Positions 19,611-20,597 of a stretch of DNA of 28,081 nt are shown here, one piece after another. The notes below the pieces were generated by a model, which saw only the letters and a program-made list of their open reading frames with translations, ran no database searches and had not been told where the DNA came from. The translations under genes were made by a program, and so were the position numbers. Source of the DNA: a virus; IMG/VR virus record IMGVR_UViG_3300029953_000630. One strand, written 5' to 3'. The first letter of the stretch is position 1. Each line of letters opens with the position of its first letter.

Positions 19611-20597
19611 ATGGCAAAGGCAAAGAACACATCGAAGACCGAAACCCCCGTCGCGGCTCCCGCGAAGCCTAGTGTCGCCGACCTCTCCAGCAAGTTGAAC
19701 AACCTTCTCCACCCGAAGGTTGAGTTCGCCGATGTGAACGCCGCCGCCCCCGAGAAGGTTGGCTGTGGCCGTTCGACTTGGTCGGGTAAGCTGGTCGTCA
19801 TCGAGGGCGCGAATGGCCTGACCGTCCCCGTCAAGACCTACAAGGTCATTGAGGACTCCGAGAAGTTCAAGACCAACATGATTCACCAGTGCAACCACGA
19901 AGCCTCTGAAGAGGCTCCCGTGTACGGACAGCTTAAGCAGGGTGCGATGAAGTGTGAGGCGTGCGAGGCGATTGTCGAGCGTGCCCAGTCCCTGAAGGGC
20001 ATGAAGGATGACGACGGCAAGTTTTTCGTCATCACTGACGACGAGAAGAAGGGCTGCATGGTTCTGGCCGACAAGGTCATGACCGTTGAGAAGCTGGTTC
20101 CGGCGACGGAAGTTGACCCCCTGTACTTCGAAGCTGCCGAGTACCTCGGAGCCGATGGTGGTTCGATTGTCGAACGCGCCCTCGCCGTCTTCCGCGAGAT
20201 GCTGGTGAGCACGGGTCAGGTGGCTGTTGCTCAGACCGCTCAGAGGGGGCGTGAACAGACTGTCATCATCCGCCCTTTGAAGGTTGGTCTGGCGGTTCAC
20301 TTCGTGTACTTCGAACACGAAATCCGCATCTTCGACAAGGTTGCCCCGGTTGTCCTGAGCGAGGACGAGAAGACTCTGGCGAAGCAGCTTGGCGAGGCGA
20401 TGTCTGACAAGTTCGTCTCCTCGGACTACAACGACAAGTTCTCGATTCGCTTCCGCAACCTGCTGACCGCCAAGAAGGCTGGCGTGGCCGCTCCTGAAGT
20501 CAAGAAGCAGGACGCCACCGCAGTGGTCACGGTTGACCTGATGGCCGCTTTGAAGGCTTCACTGGCCAACAAGAAGGCTGCAAAGGCTGGTAAGTAA
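19611..20597 (+). CDS. ku: Ku-like DNA end-binding protein (NHEJ Ku / Mu Gam family) with ~55-aa Lys/Ala-rich N-terminal extension
   Basis: Core matches bacterial Ku: STWSGKLVV...VPVKTYKV; KCEACEAIVE...VITDDEKKG...VDPLYFEAAEYL...RGREQTVIIRPLKVGLAVHFVYFEHEIR. The C-terminal DLMAALKASL plus lysine-rich tail is Ku-typical. Confidence 0.75.
   Translation: MAKAKNTSKTETPVAAPAKPSVADLSSKLNNLLHPKVEFADVNAAAPEKVGCGRSTWSGKLVVIEGANGLTVPVKTYKVIEDSEKFKTNMIHQCNHEASEEAPVYGQLKQGAMKCEACEAIVERAQSLKGMKDDDGKFFVITDDEKKGCMVLADKVMTVEKLVPATEVDPLYFEAAEYLGADGGSIVERALAVFREMLVSTGQVAVAQTAQRGREQTVIIRPLKVGLAVHFVYFEHEIRIFDKVAPVVLSEDEKTLAKQLGEAMSDKFVSSDYNDKFSIRFRNLLTAKKAGVAAPEVKKQDATAVVTVDLMAALKASLANKKAAKAGK

Follow-up and report, generated by a model that had tools for sequence, protein, structure and literature searches.

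What does a Ku protein do in a virus, and why should it begin with a long N-terminal extension? These questions are raised by the gene at positions 19611..20597 (+) of the DNA studied here. The window (the whole stretch of 28,081 nucleotides analyzed, from IMG/VR virus record IMGVR_UViG_3300029953_000630) has at this place an open reading frame with an ATG start, encoding 328 amino acids and followed by a stop codon. A preliminary description had read the product as a highly expressed-looking Ku homolog with a histone-tail-like N-terminal extension, and had proposed for it either protection of linear genome ends, as by Mu Gam, or recruitment of host LigD.

The product is a genuine Ku, borne by a virus. 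It matches Pfam PF02735 across residues 69-245 (E 1.7e-20; 74.2 bits, where the cutoff is 25), PHROG 4873 ('Ku-like DNA end binding', 2.4e-29), and the sequences of the solved bacterial Ku chains 9vnq, 9i91 and 8v53 (E 1e-13 to 1e-14). The preliminary description had proposed a Ku-family HMM search and named two outcomes that would speak against it, the lack of such a match and a capsid identity; the PF02735 match was found, and the protein was not found to be a capsid protein. Its TIGR02772 (Ku_bact) score of 134.5 bits falls below the equivalog cutoff of 150, so we regard it as a divergent Ku and not automatically as an NHEJ equivalog. An AlphaFold2 model, made from an input alignment of 60 sequences, has a mean pLDDT of 77.9, with most of the core above 90, and superposes on the Ku-DNA structures of Bacillus subtilis and Mycobacterium tuberculosis (9vnq, 9i91) with a TM score of 0.80 and E ~1e-16. 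The ring-forming Ku fold (barrel, bridge/pillar and helical arm) is present in this predicted structure, and the predicted form of the protein is a homodimeric ring that would thread onto double-stranded DNA ends. Family matches, solved chains and superposition thus bear out the bacterial Ku core claimed earlier. By Pfam, pLDDT and TM, this core (beta-barrel, bridge and pillar, helical arm) spans residues 54-307 (19770..20531 (+)).

The core holds a Cys/His cluster, H92/C94/H96...C115xxC118, with a 10-aa insertion in its loop. We considered and rejected a clade-specific zinc site here, since ordinary Ku representatives often have CxxC too (49 of 85), and the loop insertion is the sole feature of the cluster that is particular to the window protein.

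Directly after the core comes the minimal C-terminal helix VDLMAALKASL (20532..20564 (+), residues 308-318), the LigD-binding element of bacterial Ku. Within its DLMAALKASL segment (residues 309-318), D309, L314 and L318 are invariant in the alignment of 60 Ku sequences, and L310, M311, A312, A313, K315 and S317 are each at least 90% conserved. A short basic tail, ANKKAAKAGK (20565..20594 (+); 10 aa, net charge +4), ends the protein; it is a shortened counterpart of the 'extended Cter' of other Ku proteins. The DLMAALKASL lysine tail pointed out previously is therefore present, as helix plus tail. In B. subtilis Ku the minimal C-terminal helix is needed for LigD binding, and the Lys-rich 'extended Cter' of Ku is a DNA-binding element that favors bridging and restricts threading (PMC4889933). 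In M. tuberculosis Ku the C-terminal helix docks on apo-Ku, is let go upon DNA binding and regulates filament formation (PMC12658125); since the same helix has this second role, LigD recruitment does not follow from its conservation.

At the other end of the protein, residues 1-53 (19611..19769 (+)) form a clade-specific extension ahead of the core motif RSTWSGK. For comparison, the 17-residue N-terminus of B. subtilis Ku has already been called 'unusually long' (PMC4889933). The extension has a tip (MAKAK) that is mildly basic, a linker rich in Ala and Pro, an amphipathic helix, and another linker that ends in P-EK; Ala, Lys and Pro make up 42% of its residues. The ~55-aa Lys/Ala/Pro-rich extension of the preliminary description is thus confirmed at 53 aa; its label 'histone-tail-like' is not, because it carries a net charge of only +2 and is for the most part disordered, with a single amphipathic helix. 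The +2 resides in the first 15 residues and the remainder is neutral; the tails of H3 and H4, though shorter, carry ~+12 and ~+8.

In the AlphaFold2 model the extension is disordered apart from this conserved amphipathic helix (19674..19709 (+), residues 22-33, VADLSSKLNNLL), a block with pLDDT ~73. The core motif of the helix is [VI]ADLSAxL, and an HMM of the extension has the consensus kvadLsAkLaaal. One candidate reading, that the helix duplicates the C-terminal LigD-binding helix, was rejected: a PSSM built from the C-terminal 12-mers of cellular Ku scored the extension no better than shuffles (p 0.06-0.5), and the extension HMM scored the protein's own C-terminal arm at -1.3 bits (E ~150). 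The extension module was found on none of the other ORFs of the phage loci examined. Its profile had no match in a database of 5.8 billion proteins, a search that is underpowered for so short a profile. The extension would most likely act as a flexible arm for protein docking, or as an additional tether to DNA alongside the shortened basic C-tail.

How widespread is this architecture? The identical Ku protein is found on at least 22 metagenomic contigs, which represent the same phage (0-2 mismatches per ~11 kb). A homolog exists at 87% identity, and relatives at 33-41% identity also bear the extension. We searched 1.84 billion representatives exhaustively with a profile and analyzed the best 150 matches. 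An extension of at least 25 aa was present in 53 of these, with a median length of 48 aa; ordinary Ku proteins begin their profile match at profile position 52-55 with their own residues 2-4. Nearly half of the extensions (24/53) start with MAK. Their overall composition is 19% Ala, 14% Lys, 9% Thr and 8% Pro (n = 53), with a median net charge of +3. Of the 53 extensions, 12 contain the strict helix motif [IVLA][AS][DAES][LI][ST][AS]x[LFI] (shuffle expectation 0.04), and a P-x-EK junction ahead of the core is conserved, but not uniformly, across the extensions.

In a neighbor-joining tree built on core columns only and carrying no bootstrap values, 46 of 59 extension-bearing Ku proteins fall into one clade. 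This clade holds only three members without an extension, two of which look like truncated fragments; Omega gp206 and acidobacterial Ku lie outside it. Past the conserved helix, the tail measures 12 aa in the median for the extension clade; for Ku proteins without an extension the median is 30 aa. The extension is absent from cellular Ku and from Omega gp206. Taken together, these sequence comparisons mark the extension as a derived trait that unites one coherent clade. An IMG/VR scan for Ku relatives yielded only three distant ones (27-32% identity), megablast against deposited phages gave no near-DNA match to the window phage, and among deposited phages the window Ku matches only mycobacteriophage Ku, at ~26-28% identity.

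The source element is a large phage, probably a jumbo phage. This conclusion rests on the gene order rIIA-rIIB-Ku, the 13 tRNA genes, a vault-protein-like gene, and the occurrence of one relative on contigs of 101-124 kb, plus a 310-kb contig. The tRNA array (544-9997 (+)) includes genes for Trp, Lys (three), His, Arg (four), Asn (two), Gln and Met, interspersed with small ORFs. Two of the tRNA predictions, at 544-639 and 3981-4073, are unusually long and could contain introns or be miscalls. The same region encodes a truncated arginyl-tRNA-synthetase-like protein (4380-5453 (+)) with a DALR domain and a short match to the catalytic domain, the first of two R2K-clade ATP-grasp paralogs (8279-9124 (+); the second is at 20938-21846 (+)) and, at its end, an HNH endonuclease (9270-9839 (+)). 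Then come rIIA (15481-17907 (+)) and rIIB (17900-19132 (+)), the latter ending in a strongly acidic tail (…EEDERVDLGEPSDEEDEYEEDEDCDEEDDGGY). Between rIIB and Ku is a 106-aa ORF (19239-19559 (+)) with CxxC...CxxC spacing suggestive of a zinc ribbon; it has no significant family match and was found in the window phage, not in the relatives. Downstream of Ku lie a PTH2-like peptidyl-tRNA hydrolase (21945-22373 (+)), an 819-aa Major Vault Protein-like gene (22504-24963 (+); MVP_shoulder 3.5e-26, Vault_3 1e-9) and a tail-fiber-like repeat protein (SGSYNDLNNKP…, 26971-28081 (+)), which runs off the window end and is an 860-aa gene on a longer contig.

Parts of this neighborhood recur across the relatives. 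The order rIIA-rIIB-Ku is kept in four of five divergent lineages, and in each of the three lineages whose sequence reaches far enough, the MVP-like gene is found 1.8-2.0 kb downstream of Ku, with differing genes in between. Among deposited phages the MVP-like protein has full-length matches (40% identity) only in LR756500, LR756501 and LR756503, uncultured huge phages of 462 kb and 735 kb. The Ku/MVP-like neighborhood does not extend to these huge phages, which have no Ku, rIIA or rIIB within 15 kb. A phage vault-like protein is unusual and merits separate study.

The expression signals suggest when the protein might be made. A sigma-70-like promoter precedes the gene (19557..19590 (+)), with a -35 box TAGACA (19557-19562), an 18-nt spacer and a -10 box TATACT (19581-19586), matching the consensus at 10 of 12 positions. 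The -10 box sits inside a phage-specific 15-mer, CCCGGTATACTGTAA (19576-19590). The exact 15-mer CCCGGTATACTGTRA has three copies on the + strand (15466, 19576 and 25311), ahead of rIIA, Ku and ORF 25342, respectively; allowing up to three mismatches there are five matches against 0.93 expected, a count reached in none of 100 shuffles. The further copies of the promoter as a whole (TAGMCAAA...CCCGGTATACTGTRA) are at 15447-15480 and 25293-25325 (+), ahead of rIIA and of ORF 25342-26067, which encodes a 241-aa coiled-coil-like protein. A Shine-Dalgarno sequence, TAAGGAG (19594..19600 (+)), can be read 10 nt ahead of the ATG, within an mRNA leader of 20 nt; similar sequences are common among the genes of the window phage.

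This promoter type also stands upstream of Ku in the relatives, ending only ~7 nt before the start codon, a distance that suggests leaderless mRNAs in those phages. Their version (TAKCCAAAA...GGTATACT) occurs at L005 9965-10000, L013 6225-6260, L013 186-215 and L011 9200-9229, ahead of other genes as well as Ku. Of 20 window ORFs, none has an Nc lower or a GC3 higher than Ku (40.1 and 0.765), whose Lys codons are all AAG. The conserved promoter motif and consensus SD noted earlier were thus found again (TAGACA-18-TATACT with its shared 15-mer, and AAGGAG), and 'highly expressed-looking' is a fair description as judged from the strongest codon bias in the window. A GC-rich hairpin after the stop codon (GUGGGGG...CCCCCAC then UUUC, 20605..20633 (+)) is a weak candidate terminator of -18.4 kcal/mol; it is not significant against shuffles (z -1.36), the terminator scan made no call, and we rejected an intrinsic terminator downstream of Ku. 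In T4 the rII genes are early genes. As the window Ku has its own host-type promoter of the rIIA kind, it is probably made early and abundantly.

If this Ku were to work in end joining, which ligase might serve it? The domain scan of the + strand ORFs of the 28-kb window found no ligase or LigD domain, in keeping with the earlier statement that no LigD is visible there, nor was either found in a further ~3 kb of sequence from this phage. In a related jumbo phage, a 271-aa ATP-dependent DNA ligase (L007 11449-12264 (+); PF01068 at 51.9 bits, PHROG 114) is encoded ~9 kb downstream of that phage's Ku gene. Motif I of this ligase reads KHNG and not the usual KxDG. It has no counterpart in the window phage sequence examined (the window plus ~3 kb).

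On the host side, the 80 best-matching Ku loci in GTDB species genomes included 78 from Acidobacteriota (29-34% identity). These acidobacterial Ku proteins are canonical, with long basic tails and no extension. That the nearest cellular Ku is acidobacterial may hint at the host or the origin of the phage. Acidobacteria are enriched for conventional NHEJ (PMC7719229). In a sample of four acidobacterial Ku loci, no LigD was found within 6 kb of the Ku gene. We considered kinship with Tunturi_5, the only cultured acidobacterial jumbo phage, and rejected it: Tunturi_5 lacks this Ku, and neither a Ku nor an MVP-like match was found there.

Phage Ku is already known from other systems. Actinobacteriophage Ku hijacks host LigD for genome circularization; the use of Ku by phages Omega and Corndog reportedly was the subject of experiments by Pitcher et al. 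in 2006. Like the window protein, Omega gp206 and the Corndog Ku are phage-encoded, single-domain, prokaryotic-type Ku proteins of PHROG 4873 ('Ku-like dsDNA break-binding protein'). Omega gp206 and the window Ku both keep the minimal C-terminal helix, and no phage LigD adjoins either gene. They differ in that Omega gp206, ~26-28% identical to the window Ku and outside the extension clade, has no N-terminal extension, a mycobacterial-type helix (GLLAKLEASV) and a different, long C-tail. The published viral Ku proteins, 11 in number, are all from actinobacteriophages and group with their hosts (PMC11936186), whereas the phages behind the window Ku are large and uncultivated and carry rIIA/rIIB and tRNA arrays.

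With the Ku of bacterial NHEJ (B. subtilis YkoV, M. tuberculosis Rv0937c) the window protein shares the core fold, the DLMAALKxSL helix and the H/C...CxxC cluster. It departs from them in falling below the TIGR02772 cutoff, in its 53-aa extension, in its C-tail of 10 aa versus a median of 30, in the 10-aa insertion in the Cys-cluster loop, in being phage-borne and in having no adjoining LigD. We conclude that the window Ku represents a previously undescribed lineage with an altered architecture, in which an N-terminal arm is new and the basic C-tail is cut short.

We give an even chance to the proposal that this Ku, made early, binds phage DNA ends, shields them, and then recruits an ATP-dependent ligase. 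An early and abundant Ku dimer would load onto linear phage DNA at its ends, whether after injection, during replication, or after cleavage by a host nuclease. While on the ends it would shield the phage DNA from exonucleases, and its conserved C-terminal helix would then pass the ends to an ATP-dependent ligase for joining or circularization. The ligase might be the LigD of the host, possibly an acidobacterium, or a phage ligase like that of the relative. Such a hand-over would parallel that of mycobacteriophages Omega and Corndog. For phage Ku working with host NHEJ there is precedent (PMC7719229).

Of the two functions offered in the preliminary description, Gam-like end protection and recruitment of host LigD, neither can be singled out by sequence; three points nevertheless favor ligase recruitment, namely that the C-terminal helix is strictly kept, that a relative encodes a DNA ligase, and that the nearest cellular Ku is acidobacterial. 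Pure end protection would have the Ku ring cap the ends and block exonucleases of the RecBCD/AddAB type, with no ligation. We hold this to be possible, if on the doubtful side. Linear concatemers, which need no circularization, are the usual replication form of T4-like and jumbo phages, and in the T4-like/jumbo setting indicated by rIIA/rIIB and the tRNA array protection would therefore be favored over joining. The apparently early and abundant expression of Ku and the lack of a ligase in the window also fit this reading. Moreover, the shortened basic tail would lessen the DNA bridging described for Ku (PMC4889933), and Mu Gam, which is distantly related to Ku, shields linear DNA against nucleases (PMC1378119). 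Gam, like the window Ku, is a phage protein of the Ku superfamily that is thought to act on linear phage DNA ends.

On the other hand, capping alone needs no LigD-binding helix, although that helix is strictly conserved in the clade; to our knowledge, Gam is smaller than Ku and has no such helix. The relative's ligase likewise sits poorly with a purely protective role. Finally, the window protein matches Ku and not Gam in Pfam at E values up to 1, and it is a canonical prokaryotic-type Ku with additions.

A more far-reaching idea concerns the arm. With its conserved [VI]ADLSAxL helix it might be a dedicated adaptor that recruits a phage-specific or host partner (such as a ligase of the phage, a nuclease or an inhibitor of one, or the product of the vault-protein-like gene), which would make Ku the hub of a self-contained, phage-controlled system of DNA-end handling or defense, unlike bacterial NHEJ and unlike the mechanism of Omega and Corndog. 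We consider this improbable.

Still lower we rate counter-defense repair, in which Ku and a ligase would rejoin phage DNA cut by restriction or CRISPR nucleases and the natural termini would not be the target. All of the evidence for ligase recruitment applies to this unlikely reading as well, and Ku lies in the early region beside the exclusion-related rIIA/rIIB and other accessory genes. Yet no defense or anti-defense gene is directly linked to Ku, and NHEJ is error-prone; imprecise repair at phage sites can harm the phage (PMC12848934).

Least of all do we expect a packaged or DNA-coating protein, whose extension would be a capsid-targeting or processing peptide and which would be injected with the DNA or coat it as a histone-like filament: a disordered arm at the N-terminus, in which a conserved P-x-EK junction stands just before the core, strong expression signals and the filaments that M. 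tuberculosis Ku forms on DNA (PMC12658125) would suit such a role, but the promoter type is common to rIIA and not to structural genes, the net charge of the extension is only +2, the junction motif is not uniformly conserved, and no other protein of these phages carries the module.

Shielding of the ends followed by ligase recruitment is the reading that we carry forward. Phage Ku has so far been documented only in actinobacteriophages; the Ku proteins described here form a separate and sizeable lineage of ~46 clusters at 50% identity. If the arm is indeed a partner-docking element, it would represent a new wiring of Ku into DNA-end protection or joining, and it would offer a compact Ku variant for end-joining tools. 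For large soil phages, the Ku gene provides both a marker and a hypothesis for how genome ends may be protected or joined.
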